This document shows, piece after piece, positions 9,671 to 37,302 of a stretch of 64,000 nucleotides of DNA. A model generated the notes under the pieces. That model worked only from the letters and a program-made list of their open reading frames with translations. It was not told where the DNA came from and did no database searches. The position numbers and the translations under genes are program-made. The DNA lies in assembly GCA_947259495.1 (NCBI GenBank), contig CAMYLV010000008.1, positions 71,939 to 135,938 on the forward strand. Direction: 5' to 3'. Numbering within the stretch: position 1 is the first letter of the stretch; the number at the start of each line of letters is the position of its first letter. The stretch comes from an uncultured Desulfobacterales bacterium (lineage in GTDB: Bacteria; Desulfobacterota; Desulfobacteria; Desulfobacterales; JAHEIW01).

Positions 9671-11333
9671 ACCCCGCATCTGGCCGCTCAAGAACCGCGG
9701 TTTGTCAAAGGCTAATGGCAAAGGCGGCGCGCGCCTCATTTTGCTCGGCACATTCGGCCTGCTTTTCTGGTGCGGTATATTCGCCGTCTCCTGGCGGGTT
9801 TTGATTTACTTTAAGGGCATTGAGGATATCGGAGACATTCTGGGCTATAAATTATTGTCCATGATGCTGGTGGTGTCTTTTGCCCTGCTTCTATTCAGCA
9901 ACATCCTCACATCCCTTTCCAAACTCTATCTGTCCCGCGACCTTTTGCTGGTTCATTCGCTGCCGGTTTCCAGTTATAAGATTTTTATCACGCGCTGGGT
10001 CGACAGCACTATTGACAGTGCCTGGATGGTCATCATTTATACCATGCCCGTGCTCATCTCCTATGGCATCGTCTATAAAACCGGCATTTTTTACTATATC
10101 AACACCCTGATTGCGATGTTGTGCCTGGCAGCGATCGCTTCGGCCATCAGCACTCTACTGGTGATGACTGCGGTCATCTTTATCCCCGCCAGCCGAATGA
10201 AAAGTGTCTTTATTCTCATGGGGATTCTTTCTTTTGTGGTCATCTATCTGGCCATCCGCCTTTCACAGCCGGAATTGCTTGTCGACCCGGAAATTTTTGA
10301 CACCGTTATGGTCTATATTACCTCGCTGCAAACGCCGTCATCACCGTTTTTGCCGAGCAGCTGGATATATGACAGTATTCGATCCGCTCTTGCCGGTGCG
10401 ACCAGCAACAGTTTGTTTTTCACGGCGCTGTCTTTGAGTTTTGCCGGGATGATTGCATTTGTCCTGATCTTACTTGCCGATGCGATTTACTTTAAAGGCT
10501 TCTCCAAAACACAGAATGCTCCGGCCCGTTTGTTTAAAAGCAACGTCATCGGCGATCGCCTTTTTAACTTTCTGCCGGGCCCGGTAAGGTCCTTTACGGT
10601 CAAAGAAATAAAGACCTTCCTGCGCGACCAGACCCAGTGGACGCAGATCTTTCTGATTGCCGCCCTGGTGGTGATTTACGTTTATAATTTCAAGGTCCTG
10701 CCCCTTGAAAAATCGCCGATCAAAACCGTGTACCTGCAGAATCTATTCTCATTTCTTAACATGGGACTGGCGTTGTTCGTTTTGACAGCCATAACCGCCC
10801 GATTTGCCTACCCGGCGGTCAGTCTGGAAAGAGAGGCCTTCTGGCTGGTTAAAACCTCCCCGCTATCCATCCGTACGTTTTTATGGATTAAATTTTTCAT
10901 CTATTATCTTCCGCTACTCATCTTGACCGAGGTTCTGATTGCGGCAACCAACATCCTGCTGCAGGTCACGCCGTTTATGATGATCCTTTCAACCCTTACG
11001 GTTTTTTTTGTTGTCCCCGGCATCGTGGCACTGGGCATCGGCCTGGGAGCGGCCTATCCGGATTTTAAAGCCGAAAATCCGACCCAGACCATAACCAGTT
11101 TCGGCGGACTGGTCTTTATGATTGCCTGCGCCGGATACATCGGCCTGGTGGTCCTCATCGAGGCGGGTCCGGTGTACAATCTCTTTATGGCCGGCATCCG
11201 CAATAAATTTATCAGCCTGTCAGCCTGGATATGGATTATCGGCTCCTTTGGCCTGGTATTGGTTCTCAGCCTGCTGGCCATTTTTCTGCCGATGCGCTTT
11301 GGCCGGAGACGCCTGTCCCAATTGCTCATCTGA
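9645..11333 (+). CDS. polytopic membrane protein, putative ABC exporter permease partner
   Basis: 562 aa with many hydrophobic helices. It overlaps the ATPase gene end by 26 nt. Confidence 0.7.
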   Translation: MNEVLTLFKPRIWPLKNRGLSKANGKGGARLILLGTFGLLFWCGIFAVSWRVLIYFKGIEDIGDILGYKLLSMMLVVSFALLLFSNILTSLSKLYLSRDLLLVHSLPVSSYKIFITRWVDSTIDSAWMVIIYTMPVLISYGIVYKTGIFYYINTLIAMLCLAAIASAISTLLVMTAVIFIPASRMKSVFILMGILSFVVIYLAIRLSQPELLVDPEIFDTVMVYITSLQTPSSPFLPSSWIYDSIRSALAGATSNSLFFTALSLSFAGMIAFVLILLADAIYFKGFSKTQNAPARLFKSNVIGDRLFNFLPGPVRSFTVKEIKTFLRDQTQWTQIFLIAALVVIYVYNFKVLPLEKSPIKTVYLQNLFSFLNMGLALFVLTAITARFAYPAVSLEREAFWLVKTSPLSIRTFLWIKFFIYYLPLLILTEVLIAATNILLQVTPFMMILSTLTVFFVVPGIVALGIGLGAAYPDFKAENPTQTITSFGGLVFMIACAGYIGLVVLIEAGPVYNLFMAGIRNKFISLSAWIWIIGSFGLVLVLSLLAIFLPMRFGRRRLSQLLI

Positions 11334-11374
11334 CCCCCTGCAAGCCTGCAAAGTCCCATCTTCAAATTTTCATC

Positions 11375-11403
11375 TTGACAGCCATAATGTATACGTTTAT
11401 ATT
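11375..11403 (+). promoter_or_regulatory. candidate sigma70 promoter for the 4HB-remnant/lexA transcription unit
   Basis: TTGACA (11375-11380), a 17-nt spacer, then TATATT (11398-11403). The spacer contains the near-palindrome AATGTATACGTT. Confidence 0.5.
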
Positions 11404-11422
11404 TACATTAATATTTACATTA
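11399..11422 (+). promoter_or_regulatory. exact tandem 12-mer ATATTTACATTA x2 overlapping the -10/+1 region (possible operator)
   Basis: Read directly: ATATTTACATTAATATTTACATTA immediately at and after the -10 hexamer. Confidence 0.35.
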
Positions 11423-11428
11423 TTCTCT

Positions 11429-11708
11429 GGTTTACCGTTCAAAGGTTCGGGGTTCAAAGATTAAAGACAAATCTGAACCGTTGCTTCGAAGATCCGAGGA
11501 GAAAAGGATGAAAATCGAACAATTTGACGACATTGAAGCCTGGCAATTGACCCGGAAGCTCACTCGCAAGGTCTATGAATTGACAAAAAAGCCCAAATTT
11601 GATCGCGACTTCGGCTTGAAGAGGCAAATTCAGGAGGCCGCCGGTTCATCCATGCACAATATTGCGGTAACCCTGAACGGTGAACCCTGAACCCTTGAAC
11701 CTGAAACC
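11429..11708 (+). repeat. flavoured-hairpin element copy B (GGTTCA / TGAACC arms) carrying an internally deleted four-helix-bundle gene
   Basis: Left array GGTTTACCGTTCAAAGGTTCGGGGTTCAAAG. Right array GTAACCCTGAACGGTGAACCCTGAACCCTTGAACCTGAAACC, whose first 27 nt are identical to the right arm of copy C. Confidence 0.8.
11508..11690 (+). pseudogene. truncated four-helix-bundle protein gene (23S rRNA IVS protein family), N-terminal 53 codons only
   Basis: MKIEQFDDIEAWQLTRKLTRKVYELTKKPKFDRDFGLKRQIQEAAGSSMHNIA, then the frame reads straight into the right repeat arm. By eye there are 15 mismatches over 160 nt versus 13339-13498. The roughly 210 bp present in copy C between ATTGCGG and TAACCC are absent. 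Confidence 0.8.
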
Positions 11709-11724
11709 GACGAAAGGAGGTTTC

Positions 11725-12357
11725 ATGAAAGTCCCGCTGACAGCCAAACAGCAGCGTGTTCTGGATTATCTTCAGCGCGAAATCGCCAAAACCGGTCTGT
11801 GCCCCAGCCTGCGCCAGGCTGCAGCGAATCTGGGGGTCAGCCATGCCGCTATCGCCCAGATCCTTCGTGTGCTGGAAGAAAAAGGCTATGTTAAGCGCGA
11901 GGGGCGTTACAGCCGCAACGTTTATTTGTTAAATCGCACGCGCCAGGCAGCGGCTTTGCAGCGCTGGCGCGAAATCCCGATTATCGGTCGTGTCACGGCC
12001 GGTCTACCGATGTACGCCCAGACGGAGTGGGACGGCAGCATCGTGCTGGATGCCGCCGTTTATCGCAGTCAAAACATCTTCGCCCTGCGCGTCAAGGGCG
12101 ATTCGATGAGAGATGCCGGCATCCTCAACGGCGACCTGGCGATCTGCGAACCGCGTCAGTACGCCCAAAATGGGGAAATCGTCGTGGTTCTCATTAACAG
12201 TGAAGAGGCCACTGTCAAACGCTTCTTTTTACGTGACGACCACATCGAGCTGCGTCCGGAAAATACCGACTACGCCCCCATGCGTTACGGCTTCGGCGAA
12301 GTGCTGGTTCAGGGCAAGATCATCGGCATCCACCGCGGCCCGGAAGAAATAAATTGA
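11725..12357 (+). CDS. lexA: LexA repressor (S24 peptidase)
   Basis: wHTH N-terminus (LTAKQQRVLDYLQREIAKTGLCPSLRQAA), catalytic GDSM and VKRF Lys motif. AAAGGAGG SD 5 nt upstream of the ATG at 11725. The track ORF start at 11680 lies inside the repeat arm. Confidence 0.9.
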   Translation: MKVPLTAKQQRVLDYLQREIAKTGLCPSLRQAAANLGVSHAAIAQILRVLEEKGYVKREGRYSRNVYLLNRTRQAAALQRWREIPIIGRVTAGLPMYAQTEWDGSIVLDAAVYRSQNIFALRVKGDSMRDAGILNGDLAICEPRQYAQNGEIVVVLINSEEATVKRFFLRDDHIELRPENTDYAPMRYGFGEVLVQGKIIGIHRGPEEIN

Positions 12358-12468
12358 GCACGCTGCGCATTTGAGGAGCGGTCCTCGGAACCTTTAGGAA
12401 CGCTCCTTCAGCCGGGCATGATGGCATTGCGCAAGCGTTAGCAGCATCCCTTGGCGTAGAAAACGAAA

Positions 12469-13293
12469 ATGCAAACCGAGCAAACAAAAAGCCCCTGCCG
12501 CCTGTGGGTCGGCACCAGCGGTTATTCGTATACAGAGTGGGTCAACGCCGGGTTTTACCCGCCGGGCACCCGATCGGGCCAGATGCTGCCGCTTTACGCC
12601 CGAACCTTTCCGATCACCGAACTGAACTTCACCTGGTATCAGATGCCGAAAGCCGCTGCCATCGAACGCATGCGCCGGCAGGCACCGCCCGGTTTTCGTT
12701 TTGCCGCCAAACTGACCCGCACCTTAACCCATGAGGTGGACCCCGACCAATGGCGGGGGCAGGCCTCTCAATACCGCGACGGCATGGCACCGCTGGTCCA
12801 GGCCCGGCAGCTGACAGCTGTTTTGCTGCAGTTTCCGCCGAGCTTTTCCCGGGCGCCGCAAAATCGCCGCTACCTGGCCGCCCTTCTGGACGAACTGGCC
12901 GGATTGCCCCTGGCGGTGGAATTTCGCCATGCCTCATGGGCCGCGGACCGGGTTTTTGCCGAACTGGAGCGCCGCCGCACCACCTTGGTGGCCGTGGATG
13001 AACCGGCTTTACCGGGCCTGTTTCCGCGACTCGATTTGGTCACCAATCCGGAGCTTTTCTATATTCGGTTTCACGGCCGCAACGCCAGAGGCTGGCGCTC
13101 GGGCAATATGCAAATGCAGTTCGACTACGACTACCGTGATGAAGAGCTGCGGGAATGGGCTGATAAAATCATCACACCGATGACCCGACAGGCCGGCAGC
13201 GGGACAATTTTTTTCAACAACCACGTCCGCGGCCAGGCACCCAAAAATGCCCGGCGTTTGATCAGCCAGTTAATTGAAGGAGGTCTTCTCTAG
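12469..13293 (+). CDS. DUF72 (YecE-like) family protein
   Basis: WVGTSGYSYTEWVNAGFYPPG N-terminus, FRFAAKL, AVLLQFPPSF and AVEFRHASW are typical DUF72 blocks. Confidence 0.85.
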   Translation: MQTEQTKSPCRLWVGTSGYSYTEWVNAGFYPPGTRSGQMLPLYARTFPITELNFTWYQMPKAAAIERMRRQAPPGFRFAAKLTRTLTHEVDPDQWRGQASQYRDGMAPLVQARQLTAVLLQFPPSFSRAPQNRRYLAALLDELAGLPLAVEFRHASWAADRVFAELERRRTTLVAVDEPALPGLFPRLDLVTNPELFYIRFHGRNARGWRSGNMQMQFDYDYRDEELREWADKIITPMTRQAGSGTIFFNNHVRGQAPKNARRLISQLIEGGLL

Positions 13294-13745
13294 GTTCAGA
13301 GGTTCCGGGTTCTGGGTTCAAAGGTTCTGAGGAAAAAAATGAAAATCGAACGATTTGAAGACATTGAGGCCTGGCAATTGGCCCGGGAGTTAACACGCAA
13401 GGTCTATGAATTGACAAAAAAGCCCCGGTTTGCGGGCGACTTCGGCTTGAAGAGACAAATTCAGGAGGCCGCCGGTTCATCCATGCACAATATTGCGGAA
13501 GGATTCGATTCGGAGACAAACCCGGAATTTATTCGTTTTCTTCGATATGCCAAGCGGTCTTGCACTGAAGTCCAGAGTGAGCTTTACGTGGCACTGGATC
13601 AGCAATACATAACAACTCAAGAGTTTCAGAATGTGTACGACCATGCCGGGCGTACCCGTGCTGCCATTCGAGGTTTCATTAAGTACTTGCTAGCTTATGA
13701 GCAAGGTAACCCTGAACGGTGAACCCTGAACCTATGAACCCTTAT
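13293..13745 (+). repeat. flavoured-hairpin element copy C (GGTTCA / TGAACC arms) with an intact four-helix-bundle gene; the reference full-length copy
   Basis: Left array GGTTCAGAGGTTCCGGGTTCTGGGTTCAAAGGTTCTGAGG (13293-13332). Right array GTAACCCTGAACGGTGAACCCTGAACCTATGAACCC (13706 onward). Together they bracket ORF 13339-13722. Confidence 0.85.
13339..13722 (+). CDS. four-helix-bundle protein (23S rRNA intervening-sequence protein family, PF05635/TIGR02436-like; Avd-like fold)
   Basis: 127 aa with FEDIEAWQLARELTRKVYELT...GLKRQIQEAAGSSMHNIAEGF...EFIRFLRYAKRSCTEVQSELYVALDQQYIT, the hallmark pattern of this family. Confidence 0.85.
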   Translation: MKIERFEDIEAWQLARELTRKVYELTKKPRFAGDFGLKRQIQEAAGSSMHNIAEGFDSETNPEFIRFLRYAKRSCTEVQSELYVALDQQYITTQEFQNVYDHAGRTRAAIRGFIKYLLAYEQGNPER

Positions 13746-14915
13746 AACCGTTCAATTATCCATTTAAACGTGGCTGATTTTGCCGTGGCGGTGGAAAGGG
13801 CGGTGGATCACCGGCTGCACGAACGTCCGGTGATCATCGCACCCGAAGGCGCCGTACGCGCCGCCGTTTATGACATGAGCAACGAGGCCTATATAACCGG
13901 CATCCGCAAGGGCATGGCCCTGCAGCGAGCCGTTCGCCTGTGTCAAGATGTCCGCATCCTGCCGCCCCACCCCCACCGCTACGAACAGGCCATGCGCGAT
14001 GTGCTCAAGCGCGCCCTGCCGTATTCACCCCTGATCGAAACCGGTGAAGACGACGGCCACCTGTTTATGGATGCCACCGGCACCGGCCGCCTTTTCGGGC
14101 CGCCCAGGGATGTGGCCTGGCGGTTGCGCCGGCAGATCAAAACCGACCTGGGCCTGGACCCGATCTGGTCGGTGGCACCCAACAAATTGGTGGCCAAAGT
14201 GGCCACCCGCCTGGTGAAACCCGATGGAGCGTACATCGTCTCGGCCGGCGAAGAAAGATCGCTGCTGGCCCCGCTGCCTGTCCGCCTGGTTCCAGGCATC
14301 GAGCGCGATGACCTGCTTCGGTTGCGGGAATTCAATTTGACGCATGCATTTCAGGTCGCGGCCCTGAGCCTGGAGCAGTTGGCGGTCCCTTTTGCCACCC
14401 GTGCCCGGCTGCTTTACGAGGCGGTGCGCGGCATCGATCCGTCTCCGGTTTTGCCGGTCGGGCAGAAACCGCCGCAGGTGATCGCCGATCACGAATTCGG
14501 CATCGACACCAACGATGTGCACACCCTGGAGAGCGTTCTCTACGGGCTGGTGGAGCAGGTTGGCAGCCGGCTGCGCCGACGCCGGCGAGTTGCCCGCCGC
14601 ATTGCCATTGTGCTCGACTATTCCGACGGCATGCGCCGCGCCCGCCAGGTGGCCGCCCGGCCGGCCACGGCCAATGACCTCACCCTCTTTGAACTGGCCC
14701 GGCGCGCACTGCAACTGGCCTGGATGCGGCGGGTGCGTATCCGCCACCTGCGCCTGATCGGCGCCCGGCTGGTCTTTCCGCCGGCCCAGTTAGAACTGTT
14801 TGCCGCCGATCAGAAAGCCGATGAAAAGCGATCCAGCCTGATCGGCGCCATCGACACCGTGCGCCACCGCTTCGGCCATGAGGCCTTGCGGTTCGGCCGC
14901 ACTTTAGCGGCCTAA
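13719..14915 (+). CDS. imuB: ImuB-like Y-family DNA polymerase homologue (catalytically inactive type)
   Basis: IIHLNVADFAVAVE aligns with the DinB motif IIHVDMDCFFAAVE, but both Asp residues are replaced. The SLDE position reads DDGH. Both candidate ATGs (13719, 13734) lie inside the right arm of element C, and the gene sits upstream of dnaE2. Confidence 0.8.
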   Translation: MNPEPMNPYNRSIIHLNVADFAVAVERAVDHRLHERPVIIAPEGAVRAAVYDMSNEAYITGIRKGMALQRAVRLCQDVRILPPHPHRYEQAMRDVLKRALPYSPLIETGEDDGHLFMDATGTGRLFGPPRDVAWRLRRQIKTDLGLDPIWSVAPNKLVAKVATRLVKPDGAYIVSAGEERSLLAPLPVRLVPGIERDDLLRLREFNLTHAFQVAALSLEQLAVPFATRARLLYEAVRGIDPSPVLPVGQKPPQVIADHEFGIDTNDVHTLESVLYGLVEQVGSRLRRRRRVARRIAIVLDYSDGMRRARQVAARPATANDLTLFELARRALQLAWMRRVRIRHLRLIGARLVFPPAQLELFAADQKADEKRSSLIGAIDTVRHRFGHEALRFGRTLAA

Positions 14916-14916
14916 C

Positions 14917-15212
14917 TGCCGGTTTGCCCGTTGCCGGTTTAGCCCGTTGGCCGGTTGATAATTGAACGAATAACCATCAGAACAAACTGTTGAACAAACG
15001 AATTTATTCGATTTTTAACATATTCGCGACGCTCTTGTTCTGAGGTACAAAATTGCCTGTATATTGCTTTGGACCAGAAGGACATCTCCCCAGAAGCGTT
15101 TCAAAGTACTTATGACCACTGTGCAAGGATCAGGAAAATAATTGATGGCCTAATCCGTTACTTGAAAAACCATCAACCCGGCTAACGGGCCAACGGGCTC
15201 AACCGGCTCAAC
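14917..15212 (+). repeat. flavoured-hairpin element copy D (GCCSGTT / AACSGGC arms) with a 5'-truncated four-helix-bundle gene fragment
   Basis: Left array CTGCCGGTTTGCCCGTTGCCGGTTTAGCCCGTTGGCCGGTTG starts 2 nt after the imuB stop. Right array CAACCCGGCTAACGGGCCAACGGGCTCAACCGGCTCAAC ends 6 nt before the dnaE2 ATG. Confidence 0.8.
14997..15185 (+). pseudogene. four-helix-bundle protein gene fragment (C-terminal half only)
   Basis: Hand translation NEFIRFLTYSRRSCSEVQNCLYIALDQKDISPEAFQSTYDHCARIRKIIDGLIRYLKNHQPG* aligns with residues ~62-124 of the 13339-13722 protein (roughly 60% identical by eye). An in-frame TGA lies just upstream and there is no start codon. Confidence 0.75.
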
Positions 15213-15218
15213 TTTGTT

Positions 15219-18200
15219 ATGATCCCATTAACCGTCCGATCCAACTACTCTTTCATGTGGGGCACAGCTTCGGTCAAACAGGTCTGCCGGGCAGCCCGAC
15301 GTCTGGGCTATACGCACCTGGCGCTGACCGACACCGACAACCTGTGCGGCCTGTGGCCCTTTTTAACCAGCTGTCGGCGCGAAGGACTGACACCCATTGT
15401 GGGGGCGGAGATCACCGACCCGCAGCGCAAGCAGCGGGCCGTCTGCCTAGTGGCCAATGATTCCGGCTACCGCAACCTCTGCCGCCTGTTGACCCGCCGC
15501 CACATGGACGATGATTTTAGTTTGGCGGCCGCTGTAAGCGCCCATGCAAATGGATTGGTGGTCCTTACCCAGAGCGCGGGCCTGCTCAGCGCCTGGCATG
15601 CTGACGGCGTTGCAGTTGCCGGCGCCCTGCCGCGTCGTCCTTTGCCCGCCACCCACCGACTGCGCCACACGGCCCGCCGCCTGGGCGTGTCGGTGGTAGC
15701 CACGCCAGGCAGTTTCTTTTTGCGTCCCGCAGACATGGCGGTGCATCGCATTTTGCGCGCCATCGCGCACAACACATCCCTGTCACGCCTGGCAGCCGAC
15801 GAAGTTGCCCCGGTAGATGCATGGCTGGCAGGCCCTCAAGAATATGAACGCCGCTTTGCCATCTGCCCGGAGGCAATCAGCGTCACTTACAAAATAGCCG
15901 AACGTCTGGATTTTAGCGGCCCGCAATTTGGCATTGTCATGCCGCCGCTGCTCGGTCAAAACGGCAGCAACCCGGCCGAGCGCCTGCGCGAGCAAGCTTA
16001 TGAAGGTGCGCGGCAGCGCTACGGCGATGAGCTTTCCGAGGCCGTGGTGGAGCGGCTGGAACACGAATTGCGCAGCATCACAGACATGGGATTTGCCGCA
16101 TATTTTTTAATCGTGCGCGGCATCATCCAGCGCAGCCCGCGCACCTGCGGCCGCGGCTCGGGCGCCGCTTCGCTGGTGGCTTACTGCCTGGGCATTACCA
16201 ATGTCTGTCCCCTGAAGCACAATTTGTATTTTGAGCGGTTCTTAAACCCGGGCCGCCAAGATCCGCCCGACATCGATGTGGATTTTGCCTGGGATGAACG
16301 CGATGCGGTCCTGGATTCGGTCCTGACCCAGTATCCGGGTCACGCCGCTATGGTGTCCAGCCACGTGCTGTTTCAACCGCGCATGGCGGTGCGCGAAGTG
16401 GCCAAGGTCTTCGGGCTGACCGATGCCGAAATCGGCCGGGTGTCCAAGCGGCTGCCCCAATTCTGGCGCGTGAAAGAATCCGACCCTCGATTTTTGGACG
16501 AACTACAGCAGCGTCCCGAATCCAAAGCGCTGGCGTTTCCCCCGCCCTGGCCCGACATTTTGCAGTTTGCCCAGCGCCTGATCGGCACCCCGCGCTATAT
16601 GTCGGTGCACCCCGGCGGCGTGGTGATCACGCCGCGGCCTATTGAAGAATACGTCCCTGTCGAGCGCGCCCCCAAAGGCGTGCCGATTATCCAGTGGGAA
16701 AAGGATGCCACCGAAGATGCCGGGCTGGTCAAAATTGATTTGCTGGGCAACCGCAGCCTGGGGGTCATTCGTGACGCCCTGGTCAACCTGCGCGACAACG
16801 GCACCGCCTTCGACGAGCTGCGCTGGGAACCCGAAGACGACTTTGCCACCCAGGAGGCTCTGGCCCAGGGTCGCACCATGGGCTGTTTTTATATCGAAAG
16901 CCCGGCCATGCGCCTGCTGCAGCAAAAGTCCAAAGTGGGCGATTTCGAACACCTGGTCATTCACAGCAGCATTATCCGCCCGGCTGCCAACGAATTTATC
17001 CAGGAATACATCCGCCGGCTGCACGGCGGCCGCTGGGACCCGATTCATCCTTTTTTGGCCGAAGTGCTCGCTGAAACCTTCGGCATCATGGTTTATCAGG
17101 AAGATGTCTCCCGCGCGGCAGTGGTTATCGCTGGCTTTTCGCATGCCGAAGCCGATACGCTGCGCAAAGTGCTGACCAAAAAGGATCGCGCGCATCAGCT
17201 GCGGGATTTTGAGCAACGCTTTTACACCGGCGCACGGCAGCACGGCGTATCCGCTGACAAAACCGCTGAAATCTGGGATATGATGATGAGCTTTAACGGC
17301 TATTCCTTCTGCAAACCCCACAGTGCTTCTTATGCCCGGGTATCCTTTCAGGCCGCCTATCTCAAGGTCCATTATCCGGCCGAATTTATGGCTGCGGTGA
17401 TCAGCAACCAGGGCGGCTTTTACGGCACCTTTGCCTACGTGTCCGAGGCCCGGCGCATGGGTCTGAAGGTGCTGCCGCCCAATGTCAGCTTAAGTGAGGT
17501 TCACTGGACCGGCGGGGCCGATACCATCCGGGTGGGGCTGCTGTCCGTCAAGGGCCTGGGCATCGACACCCGGGCGCGCATCGTTGCGCAGCGTCGCCGC
17601 CGGTCCTACGGTAGTCTGCGGGATTTTTTGGACCGCGTGCGCCCCGCGGAAGACGAGGCCCGCTCATTGATCAACTGCGGCGCCCTGGATGCCTTCAACT
17701 CCGGCGGCAACCGCGCAGCGCTGCGGTGGGAACTGGCCGGCTGGTTGAAATCAAAACGGCCGAAAGTGCCCAACCCCGCCCTGTTTGATGGTGCCAACCC
17801 TGGCGCCGATTGCCCGCCGCCGGCACTGCCCGCCGAAGATGAACGCGAACGACGGCGGCGTGAGTTTACGGTGCTGGACTTTCTGTGCGATCGTCACCCC
17901 ATGGAGCTGTTTGCCGGACAGTTGCAAAAACGACGCACCGTTAAAGCCGTGGACCTGCCGTGCTTTGTCGGCCGGCGGGTCACTCTGGCCGGCTGGCTGA
18001 TTACCGGCAAGGTGGTTTCCACCAAAAAGGGCGATCCCATGGAGTTTTTAACCTTTGAAGATGAAACCGGTATTGTAGAGACTACCTTTTTCCCGCAAGC
18101 CTACCGCCGTTTTTGCCACATCATCGATCGCCAGCGGCCCTATCTGCTTACCGGCAGGGTCGAAGCGGACTGGGGCGCGCTGACCCTTACAGTCGAAAAG

Positions 18201-18224
18201 GCCGAACAGTTGAAGTCCAGCTAA
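15219..18224 (+). CDS. dnaE2: error-prone DNA polymerase III alpha homologue DnaE2 (ImuC)
   Basis: 1001 aa with an N-terminal PHP domain (LTVRSNYSFMWGTAS), a pol III alpha core (PDIDVDF, GYSFCKPHSASYA) and a C-terminal OB fold. It follows imuB. Confidence 0.9.
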   Translation: MIPLTVRSNYSFMWGTASVKQVCRAARRLGYTHLALTDTDNLCGLWPFLTSCRREGLTPIVGAEITDPQRKQRAVCLVANDSGYRNLCRLLTRRHMDDDFSLAAAVSAHANGLVVLTQSAGLLSAWHADGVAVAGALPRRPLPATHRLRHTARRLGVSVVATPGSFFLRPADMAVHRILRAIAHNTSLSRLAADEVAPVDAWLAGPQEYERRFAICPEAISVTYKIAERLDFSGPQFGIVMPPLLGQNGSNPAERLREQAYEGARQRYGDELSEAVVERLEHELRSITDMGFAAYFLIVRGIIQRSPRTCGRGSGAASLVAYCLGITNVCPLKHNLYFERFLNPGRQDPPDIDVDFAWDERDAVLDSVLTQYPGHAAMVSSHVLFQPRMAVREVAKVFGLTDAEIGRVSKRLPQFWRVKESDPRFLDELQQRPESKALAFPPPWPDILQFAQRLIGTPRYMSVHPGGVVITPRPIEEYVPVERAPKGVPIIQWEKDATEDAGLVKIDLLGNRSLGVIRDALVNLRDNGTAFDELRWEPEDDFATQEALAQGRTMGCFYIESPAMRLLQQKSKVGDFEHLVIHSSIIRPAANEFIQEYIRRLHGGRWDPIHPFLAEVLAETFGIMVYQEDVSRAAVVIAGFSHAEADTLRKVLTKKDRAHQLRDFEQRFYTGARQHGVSADKTAEIWDMMMSFNGYSFCKPHSASYARVSFQAAYLKVHYPAEFMAAVISNQGGFYGTFAYVSEARRMGLKVLPPNVSLSEVHWTGGADTIRVGLLSVKGLGIDTRARIVAQRRRRSYGSLRDFLDRVRPAEDEARSLINCGALDAFNSGGNRAALRWELAGWLKSKRPKVPNPALFDGANPGADCPPPALPAEDERERRRREFTVLDFLCDRHPMELFAGQLQKRRTVKAVDLPCFVGRRVTLAGWLITGKVVSTKKGDPMEFLTFEDETGIVETTFFPQAYRRFCHIIDRQRPYLLTGRVEADWGALTLTVEKAEQLKSS

Positions 18225-37167: not shown

Positions 37168-37302
37168 GGTTCAAAGGTTCAGCGTTCAAAGGTTGTGAGG
37201 TTAGATTACAGACGACAGCTGTCAGAGATAAAATGAAACCGGACCGAATCACTGACGCTGAGCCCCAGAACTCCTGAACCTTGAACCTCTTAACCCTTAA
37301 CC
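37168..37302 (+). repeat. flavoured-hairpin element copy E (GGTTCA / TGAACC arms, gene-less)
   Basis: Left GGTTCAAAGGTTCAGCGTTCAAAGGTTGTGAGGTT. Core ...CAGAGATAAAATGAAACCGGACCG.... Right GAACTCCTGAACCTTGAACCTCTTAACCCTTAACC. Confidence 0.8.

Follow-up and report, generated by a model that had tools for sequence, protein, structure and literature searches.

In Coxiella burnetii's 23S rRNA intervening sequence (IVS), an S23p open reading frame (ORF) follows 3-4 tandem GACAGAT heptamers whose number varies between strains, and a 28-bp stem encloses the ORF and is cut by RNase III at the first repeat (PMC4990558). Tandem heptanucleotides are also described from Xanthomonas (GGGAATC) and Nostoc (GGGGA(C/T)T), with no function assigned (PMC4692102), from Beggiatoa (TAACTGA; PMC4679880) and from Geobacter metallireducens, in which paired hepta- and octanucleotide arrays on opposite strands are annotated as putative global regulator sites (PMC2700814). 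Insertion sequences (IS) of the IS66 family have terminal repeats starting GTAAGCG and 8-bp direct repeats (PMC11946415). Here an element, hereafter called copy C, in which a gene of the S23p family (PF05635, 23S_rRNA_IVP) lies between two heptad arrays, is described from 64,000 nucleotides of an uncultured Desulfobacterales bacterium (assembly GCA_947259495.1, contig CAMYLV010000008.1, positions 71,939 to 135,938), hereafter called the window; positions are 1-based within the window, on its forward strand. Copy C stands between a DUF72 gene and imuB and is best explained, with a probability of roughly 0.72, as an old, fixed and partly eroded non-autonomous DNA transposon, i.e. a mobile insertion cassette (MIC) or gene-bearing MITE (miniature inverted-repeat transposable element), with IS66-type ends and a conserved PF05635 passenger gene. 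A full-text literature search found neither a general association of PF05635 genes with heptad arms nor a link to IS66, the Coxiella heptamers alone being described, and descriptions of IS66-type mobile insertion cassettes and of S23p IVSs are so far unconnected in the searched literature.

The left array of copy C (coordinates of all features in Table 1) reads GGTTCAGA GGTTCCG GGTTCTG GGTTCAAA GGTTCTGA GG and is followed by AAAAAAATG, and the cassette ORF ends in GGT AAC CCT GAA CGG TGA (GNPER*) within the right GAACC array. The sequence-only reading had given this composition for the left array, had assigned the last codons of the ORF to the right arm and had called copy C the only intact gene-bearing element of the window. 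Direct reading of 13293-13332 bears out the first point, the TGA, ending at 13722 inside 13705-13745, the second, and the third is true among the four elements (copies A, B, C and D). The stop codon within the arm is a rule of the whole family and not peculiar to copy C, as the TGA lies inside the right arm in 49 of 67 loci. Chance does not account for the heptad arrays, because GGTTCNNRGGTTC was counted five times and GGTTCNNGGTTC seven times in the window, where 0.04 and 0.12 occurrences, respectively, were expected. The two arrays form inverted repeats of 28 nt with 82 % complementarity (92-93 % in sub-arms), and the right terminal repeat CTATGAACCCTTAT matches the canonical sequence at 11 of 14 positions. 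Copy C fills the entire DUF72-imuB spacer and leaves no spacer at either neighbour, since the last base of the DUF72 stop codon TAG (13291-13293) is the first G of the left array and the right arm holds the imuB start. There is no transposase within the element; its only ORF is the four-helix-bundle gene.

A genome scan returned 522 relatives, and the best 80 (64-93 % identity) were inspected. These 80 span more than 12 phyla, with members in Desulfobacterota, Cloacimonadota, Verrucomicrobiota, Acidobacteriota, Chloroflexota, Nitrospirales, an anammox planctomycete, Elusimicrobia, Fibrobacter, Thermotogae, Gemmatimonadota, Calditrichia, Spirochaetota and Cytophagia, and almost all of them have a GGTTC-type left array and a GAACC-type right array. 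Intact relatives consist, in this order, of an outer terminal inverted repeat (TIR) 5'-GTAA(C/G)CGTTCAC, tandem 7-8-nt GGTTCNN units, a Shine-Dalgarno sequence, the gene, an NNGAACC array containing the TGA, and the other outer TIR. The outer repeats of the intact copies read GTAACCGTTCAC or GTAGGCGTTCAC on the left and GTGAACGC(C/T)TAC on the right, and a second subfamily has the ends GTAACTACTCAGGTT...AACCTGAGTAGTTAC; TIRs beginning 5'-GTAA(G/C)CG were seen in the intact relatives L025, L038, L040, L042 and L023. Perfect 8-bp target duplications stand directly at the ends of L025 (AGCTATGT), L040 (CATTTTTT), L051 (AAAGATAA) and L067 (AAATCATG). The combined presence of TIRs and an 8-bp duplication was found in 11 of 67 loci, about nine of them convincing, compared with 3 of 328 mismatched controls. 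Of 52 loci, 49 have the cassette gene in the same orientation as its upstream neighbour and none has it antisense to both neighbours, a bias that speaks for its expression from host transcripts.

Scanning metagenomes for the terminus GTAASCGTTCACNGGTTCA gave 130 matches, at least 62 of which are gene-less MITEs of 67-480 bp, while seven adjoin a four-helix-bundle gene. An 8-bp duplication with at most one mismatch accompanies 20 of the 130 matches and is perfect in 14, corresponding to 17 and 13 distinct elements, as three palindromic MITEs were counted on both strands. Three matches (L154, L227 and L163) form the left end of an IS with a single ORF of 488 aa, the product of which belongs to PF03050 (DDE_Tnp_IS66, E 1.4e-26), and in L227 a matching right end GTGAACGGTTAC (...CCGTGAACGGTTAC) lies 1.52 kb from the left end. 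The 19-nt terminus is identical across the MITEs, the cassettes and an IS66-type IS of about 1.5 kb on metagenome contigs. From the shared termini and the length of the duplications we infer that the cassette and the MITEs would be non-autonomous derivatives mobilised in trans by a transposase of the IS66 family.

The intact relatives of copy C can be compared with the IS66-type IS, MITEs and mobile insertion cassettes such as MIC231 described previously (PMC11946415, PMC4337579, PMC6199540). Both groups have TIRs beginning 5'-GTAA(G/C)CG and 8-bp target duplications, the cassette has no transposase of its own, and in both gene-less and gene-bearing forms coexist with an autonomous IS having the same terminus; the passenger gene between the ends is shared with the mobile insertion cassettes. 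Long subterminal arrays of 7-8-nt tandem repeats, in contrast, are a feature of the cassette and not a described one of IS66, the passenger is one specific and highly conserved gene across phyla, and this gene is strongly biased to the sense orientation relative to the host gene.

The effect of the insertion on imuB was followed in the N-termini of 120 ImuB orthologues with 82-97 % identity. More than 70 of the 120 begin with MNRS (58), MTRS (10) or, in several cases, MDRS or MERS, and all of these are 390-392 aa long, whereas about 35 element-bearing orthologues begin with (M/V/L)N(P/L)(Y/H)NRS and have 393 aa, or else begin five residues before this and have 398 aa. Five loci of the MNRS/MDRS type were inspected and have no cassette, the DUF72-imuB spacer being 158-271 nt long and ending gaaaagATGAATCGTTCC. 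In the window, ATG AAC CCT TAT (13734-13745) aligns on the canonical right terminal repeat and native codon 2 starts at 13746, so that MNRS has become MNPYNRS and the element adds three residues to ImuB. Because orthologues without the element have MNRS-type starts and codons 1-4 are here the decayed right TIR, the alignments show the native imuB start region as replaced by the insertion, with the native ATG and the whole spacer gone. Such a replacement had been one of two interpretations offered by the sequence-only reading, and the ortholog N-termini and TIR alignment bear it out; the other, tight coupling of the two genes, is plausible as well. None of the orthologues showed a conserved extension of the N-terminus that would be encoded upstream of 13719. 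The same reading had placed imuB starts within the arm at ATG 13719 or ATG 13734, of which the latter stands and the former is in fact a GTG, 15 nt upstream and in the same frame.

Every element-bearing allele has ATG, GTG or TTG (TTG in L001) at the position of 13734, and no start-capable codon occurs in the window between 13745 and the conserved RSIIHLN. It is scarcely credible, given this, that the arm-encoded start is a gene-calling artefact and that the true start lies downstream, e.g. at GTG 13770, with the reading frame merely open through the arm. The arm does have a stop-free 15-nt in-frame periodicity ((N)TG AAC CCT GAA CCT), an rfbB-like gene in L027 is likewise over-extended into an arm, and a few database entries begin VADFAV; however, RSIIHLN is kept upstream of GTG 13770 in all full-length orthologues and the native alleles have an ATG directly before NRS. 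Within the arm, ATG 13734 is the favoured start and probably the one used, GTG 13719 being possible with a lower likelihood. The stop codon of the cassette ORF overlaps GTG 13719 and lies 12 nt before ATG 13734, and both candidate starts lie inside the predicted arm-arm stem. With the starts buried in the stem and no more than 12 nt from the cassette stop, translation of imuB would likely be coupled to that of the cassette ORF. In L027 (3396-3440) the rfbB-like gene is called from an arm GTG (GTGAACTCTGAACCTGTGAACGCTTAC...), though its own ATG GTG ACA GGG GGA follows. The 15-nt periodicity of the arm (xNPEP) constitutes a ladder of start-capable codons, which misleads gene callers.

Minimum-free-energy folds of copies A, B and C were all closed by an arm-arm stem, and the duplex of the two arms of copy C had an energy of -40.5 kcal/mol. 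Loci with deviant units keep matching arms (L075 with GTTCACA, L084 with a GCAACCC-type unit, L094 with GTTCTT, and L050), and an arm pairs far better with its own partner than with arms of other loci (L084, -105 vs -24 kcal/mol on average; L075, -94 vs -56 kcal/mol). This covariation is compatible both with a need for pairing and with a need for one protein to bind both ends. The number of left-arm units varies among near-identical metagenome contigs, from four in L001 and three in L005 down to one, with deletions in L007 and L008. Since unit number differs between otherwise identical contigs, the arrays appear to behave as unstable minisatellites within populations. The region that varies in these four contigs is situated about 110 nt upstream of the cassette ATG, and the deletions reach the ATG. 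No Rfam family was found for the arms, either at the gathering threshold on the whole window or at E ≤ 5 on 11300-13900, and no rRNA was found in the window. Many cassettes have a second GAACC array just before the ATG (L062:2900-3000, L030, L048 and L036), which could form an inner hairpin with the left arm or, alternatively, belong to a nested empty element. A hybrid MITE in L027 (1514-1640) has the GTAACCGTTCAC terminus on the left and TTTAGGCAC-type heptads on the right, suggesting that arms of different unit families can recombine.

The product of the cassette ORF matched Pfam PF05635 with 99.7 bits (cut-off 33.8) and TIGR02436, "four helix bundle protein", with 94.7 bits (cut-off 24). 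An AlphaFold2 model, built from a shallow alignment, had a pLDDT of 92 and helices at residues 10-26, 35-56, 61-87 and 93-121, the arm-encoded tail (residues 122-127) being non-helical. Foldseek placed the model closest to 2GSC (Xcc0516; TM 0.84-0.92), then to 2RLD (BT_0352) and, more distantly, to Avd, the accessory variability determinant of diversity-generating retroelements (TM 0.70-0.81 to 4DWL; 0.67-0.81 when the ribonucleoprotein 8UB7 is included). The four-helix bundle predicted from the sequence was therefore recovered by domain match, structure model and structure search. Homologues of the protein in the database number more than 5,800, and the best 120 of these (83-95 % identity) are 125-147 aa long, the differences in length being confined to the arm-encoded tail. 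The dN/dS ratio among the relatives is about 0.07, synonymous sites being close to saturation, and on this ratio the protein is judged to be functional and strongly constrained. Searches of the protein with PADLOC and PHROGs gave no matches and thus nothing in favour of a known role in defence or in phages.

The four-helix-bundle fold is common to Avd (PDB 4DWL, 8UB7) and the cassette protein. Identity between the two is, however, only about 10 %, no reverse transcriptase, template repeat or variable repeat occurs near copy C, the neighbours of which are DUF72 and ImuB, and the neighbours of the cassette vary from locus to locus among the 80 loci. Avd binds structured RNA stem-loops, and the solved family members 2GSC, 2RLD and 4DWL have five chains each. 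By analogy with Avd, it may be guessed that the cassette protein is a pentamer binding the arm hairpin.

The element would have reached the locus by transposition of the cut-and-paste or copy-in type, the target being cut with a stagger of 8 bp and the reaction catalysed in trans by an IS66-type DDE transposase. The locus no longer has the outer repeat on the left, the native spacer or the original ATG of imuB. The cassette gene would be expressed as part of host transcripts, and in the RNA the arms would pair into a long stem enclosing the ORF, which may be processed by RNase III as in the Coxiella 23S rRNA IVS. The decayed right terminal repeat would supply the start of imuB, most likely ATG 13734 and possibly GTG 13719, and coupling would proceed through unwinding by the ribosome or through termination-reinitiation.

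Eleven plasmid homologues with 27-43 % identity were found in Riemerella, Nostoc, Calothrix, Anabaena, Picosynechococcus, Geminocystis and Pseudanabaena. Ten of the 11 lie between inverted tandem heptad arrays with a unit specific to each, e.g. GGTTCAA, GGGAAAA, GGGAGTA, GGGTGTA, AGGTGAC, GGGAACA or GGAGATA; in one of the ten, Calothrix PCC 7716, the array is clear on the right side only. Inspection by eye outside the arrays of the cyanobacterial plasmid copies revealed no clear TIR or target duplication. Several of the homologues, flanked by heptad arrays like the others, lie inside cyanobacterial cas operons, between cas10 and cmr3 in L231 and between cas6 and cas4 in L233 and L109. The placement of 23S_rRNA_IVP genes in cas operons was formerly read as an association with Cas (PMC3936711); this published association may reflect insertion of the cassette and not function.

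Copy C is thus an element of the kind represented by the classic intervening sequence, although its site is an mRNA operon, because both combine a PF05635 gene with tandem heptamers and an enclosing stem. According to the available part of the Coxiella report (PMC4990558), the S23p IVSs of C. burnetii and Leptospira share with copy C a PF05635 ORF of about 120 aa, a long stem of terminal inverted repeats around the ORF, tandem heptamers of variable number directly 5' of it, insertion in the sense orientation of a transcribed unit, and a sporadic distribution suggesting horizontal transfer. The IVS differs in lying in helix 45 of 23S rRNA and not between protein-coding genes, and in its unit, GACAGAT in Coxiella as opposed to GGTTCNN in copy C; cleavage by RNase III is described for the Coxiella IVS and is a prediction for copy C. 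The Coxiella ORF is decaying, whereas that of copy C is under strong purifying selection, and the IS66-type ends and 8-bp duplications of the relatives of copy C are not mentioned for the Coxiella IVS in that part of the report. The bacterial heptanucleotide repeats resemble the cassette arms in being intergenic tandem 7-nt units, often in convergent inverted pairs, variable in number and found in distant phyla with no known mechanism; the available parts of those papers link them neither to PF05635 genes nor to transposon ends, whereas here the arrays are the arms of a mobile cassette.

Several observations weigh against an IS66-type cassette as the origin of copy C. Copy C, unlike the described IS66 derivatives and mobile insertion cassettes, has lost its left end, i.e. 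the outer terminal repeat GTAACCGTTCAC of intact relatives, and has no target-site duplication, its flanks being lost; its assignment to the family rests on homology to the intact copies. No IS66 transposase was found by tblastn in the window, the IS being known from metagenome contigs, and no 8-bp duplication was found around L154 and L227, the sole IS copies with readable right ends. The IS carries one GGTTCA unit only, which leaves the origin of the heptad arrays unexplained by it. The whole-element fold of copy C was little better than those of shuffled sequences (z = -1.6). Among the remote homologues, the units are quite different and GTAA ends are not visible, and in Pseudanabaena (L109:1390-1990) the arrays are direct, not inverted (AAAGCTA x15, AAAGCCA x10). 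Element-bearing and native alleles are interleaved on a neighbour-joining tree of ImuB (orthologues P0121-P0240), with about 20 switches. The interleaving implies recombination or repeated gain and loss at the spacer, without which a single ancient insertion would not predict it.

Some of these observations would suit a different mechanism of mobility, in which a hairpin-recognising Y1/RAYT transposase, recombination between arms or an RNA intermediate moved the element and the resemblance to IS66 was incidental. The interleaved alleles, the IS copies without target duplications and the remote homologues having heptad arms and no visible GTAA ends are joined here by the hairpin-forming arms, the shifts in repeat number between near-identical contigs and the presence of a Y1_Tnp-like gene in the imuB-dnaE2 spacer of one lineage. 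Such a mechanism is nevertheless unlikely: the terminus shared by MITEs, cassettes and IS66-type IS speaks against it, GTAA ends with 8-bp repeats are the signature of IS66 (PMC11946415), and the frequent perfect duplications of 8 bp would not be expected from Y1 transposases, which do not duplicate their target, on which ground mobilisation by Y1/RAYT was disfavoured. An IS66-type cassette remains the preferred explanation.

Table 1 Features of copy C, its neighbours and related elements (window positions, except for the IS copies, which are given by locus)
Feature	Position	Strand	Description or basis
Copy C, gene-bearing element	13293-13745	+	five GGTTC heptad/octad units, Shine-Dalgarno, 127-codon ORF, inverted GAACC array
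Copy C left arm, five tandem GGTTC heptad/octad units	13293..13332	+	direct reading, counts, complementarity, alignment
Shine-Dalgarno-like GAGGA, 5 nt before cassette ORF ATG 13339	13329..13333	+	direct sequence reading
Intact 127-codon gene for PF05635/TIGR02436 four-helix-bundle protein (S23p/Avd-like)	13339..13722	+	HMMs, structure model, dN/dS
Copy C right arm, GAACC-type array inverted relative to left arm; holds ORF stop and both candidate imuB starts	13705..13745	+	sequence, complementarity, folding
Decayed right terminal inverted repeat CTATGAACCCTTAT (canonical CT(G/A)TGAACGC(C/T)TAC); element end at 13745	13732..13745	+	alignment to intact cassettes
Upstream DUF72 gene	12469..13293	+	domain match; stop abuts left arm, zero spacer
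GTG, alternative imuB start, overlapping cassette ORF stop as GTGA	13719..13721	+	direct reading
ImuB-like Y-family polymerase gene from ATG 13734; codons 1-4 (MNPY) element-derived, codon 5 on (NRSIIHLN...) native codon 2 onwards	13734..14915	+	
DnaE2-type error-prone polymerase gene, downstream partner of imuB	15219..18224	+	
TTGACA-17-TATATT, promoter of sigma-70-like type preceding copy A and lexA	11375..11403	+	conserved in orthologues
Copy A, in lexA 5' leader	11430..11705	+	89 % and 94 % nt identity to copy C over two matching segments; same subfamily
Copy D, filling imuB-dnaE2 spacer; tandem unit GCCGGTT/GCCCGTT	14917..15210	+	
Copy B, gene-less, MITE-like, GGTTC/GAACC arms, between two moeA-like genes	37168..37300	+	
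Complete IS66-type IS copies	L154:816-2360; L227:1811-3333		shared MITE terminus

Three of the four elements of the window lie within a 4-kb lexA-DUF72-imuB-dnaE2 operon, and the promoter listed in Table 1 is probably that of a lexA-DUF72-cassette-imuB-dnaE2 transcript. The imuB product has the domains IMS and IMS_C, with lexA upstream and the dnaE2-type gene downstream; HLN replaces the HVD of DinB, which presumably marks an inactive, ImuB-like protein. Copy A has an internal deletion at attgcgg|taaccctg and keeps approximately the first 53 codons (tblastn residues 1-59), its remnant reading frame running on into the right arm. Copy D has 24-nt inverted arms with 92 % complementarity, the right one ending about 9 nt before the dnaE2 ATG, and encloses a remnant of a PF05635 gene that lacks its 5' part (residues 63-123 remain; 54 % identity, E 1.6e-19). 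In one lineage (L011:4604-5263, also L013, L014, L015 and L018) the imuB-dnaE2 spacer holds a gene for 219 aa that matches Y1_Tnp (IS200-like; 28.9 bits, cut-off 23).

The lexA leaders compared (window 11333-11730, L001, L011, L101, L102 and L105) have a conserved promoter and two ATATTTACATTA copies in tandem, which are a candidate operator for LexA, followed by a different heptad-arm MITE in each lineage, and the leader thus appears to be a hot spot of insertion. In orthologues without copy C, the DUF72-imuB spacer contains other inverted-heptad elements that have no gene (L101:3261-3501, L102:3229-3501, L104:2086-2245 and L105:3232-3501), with the units TGCCTAAA/TTTAGGCA (TGCCTAAA in L101) and TCGAAAT/ATTTCGG (TCGAAAT in L102). 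L102 and L104 differ by a 113-nt segment between direct repeats CTTTTTGAAAAT.

LexA binds GGTTN2CN4GN3ACC in Geobacter, GTTCN7GTTC in alphaproteobacteria and, as the Cheo box, GAACN4GTTC. The arms were rejected as LexA boxes, since these motifs do not fit the 7-8-nt spacing of the arrays and the candidate operator lies upstream of copy A. More generally, it is highly improbable that the heptad arrays are operators through which a DNA-binding regulator, LexA or a 'global regulator' of the Geobacter type, controls the flanking SOS genes. The arrays do occupy regulatory positions, in the lexA leader and just before imuB and dnaE2, and the paired arrays of G. metallireducens carry the annotation cited above (PMC2700814), but the same arrays occur at dozens of unrelated cassette loci and in gene-less MITEs with target duplications, orthologous spacers hold unrelated units, and the conserved candidate operator stands upstream of the arrays, not in them.

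A second reading of the operon, that the SOS mutasome has the four-helix-bundle protein as a dedicated subunit, an Avd-like factor for ImuB/DnaE2 that perhaps replaces the missing ImuA, so that the arrangement is by operon design and not by insertion, is very unlikely. No imuA gene is present, the order lexA-DUF72-4HB-imuB-dnaE2 (4HB, four-helix-bundle gene) is kept in at least three sampled lineages, Avd is the obligatory partner of a mutagenic polymerase in diversity-generating retroelements, and both the strong purifying selection on the protein and the clustering of three of the four elements in the SOS operon would agree with such a role. On the other hand, only two of the 80 loci of close homologues have an SOS neighbour, both in orthologous Desulfobacterales, more than 70 of the 120 close ImuB orthologues are without the gene, copies A and D of the same operon are truncated, and the same cassette occurs with target duplications at unrelated sites. 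A functional 4HB-ImuB module was rejected on the count of SOS neighbours, and from the same count the protein appears to be no general partner of ImuB/DnaE2. The locus is instead a hot spot of insertion.

The PF05635 family is very large (homologues run to thousands), and its function is known only in diversity-generating retroelements. Its members across phyla sit between heptad arrays, and one large clade has IS66-type ends and 8-bp duplications, which joins three observations treated separately up to now: the S23p rRNA IVSs, the "cas-associated" 23S_rRNA_IVP genes and the unexplained intergenic heptanucleotide repeats. A caution follows for the family, in that gene neighbourhood is unsafe for inferring the function of PF05635 proteins. 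A broader proposal, tentative and in our view doubtful, is that PF05635 four-helix-bundle proteins are the trans-acting partner of bacterial tandem heptanucleotide repeats (the G-rich units of cyanobacteria and Xanthomonas, TAACTGA, and those of Geobacter), with the cassette as the master copy and a pentamer that would bind the heptad hairpin, as RNA or cruciform DNA, of its own cassette and of the derived MITEs and control their processing, stability or mobility. If this were true, the rRNA IVSs, the "cas-associated" genes and the copy fused to imuB would be one selfish system riding on host operons. For the organism, the start codon of imuB, and probably its translational control too, come from a transposon end, and as related strains carry either a native or a transposon-derived imuB allele, the output of SOS mutagenesis may differ between them.

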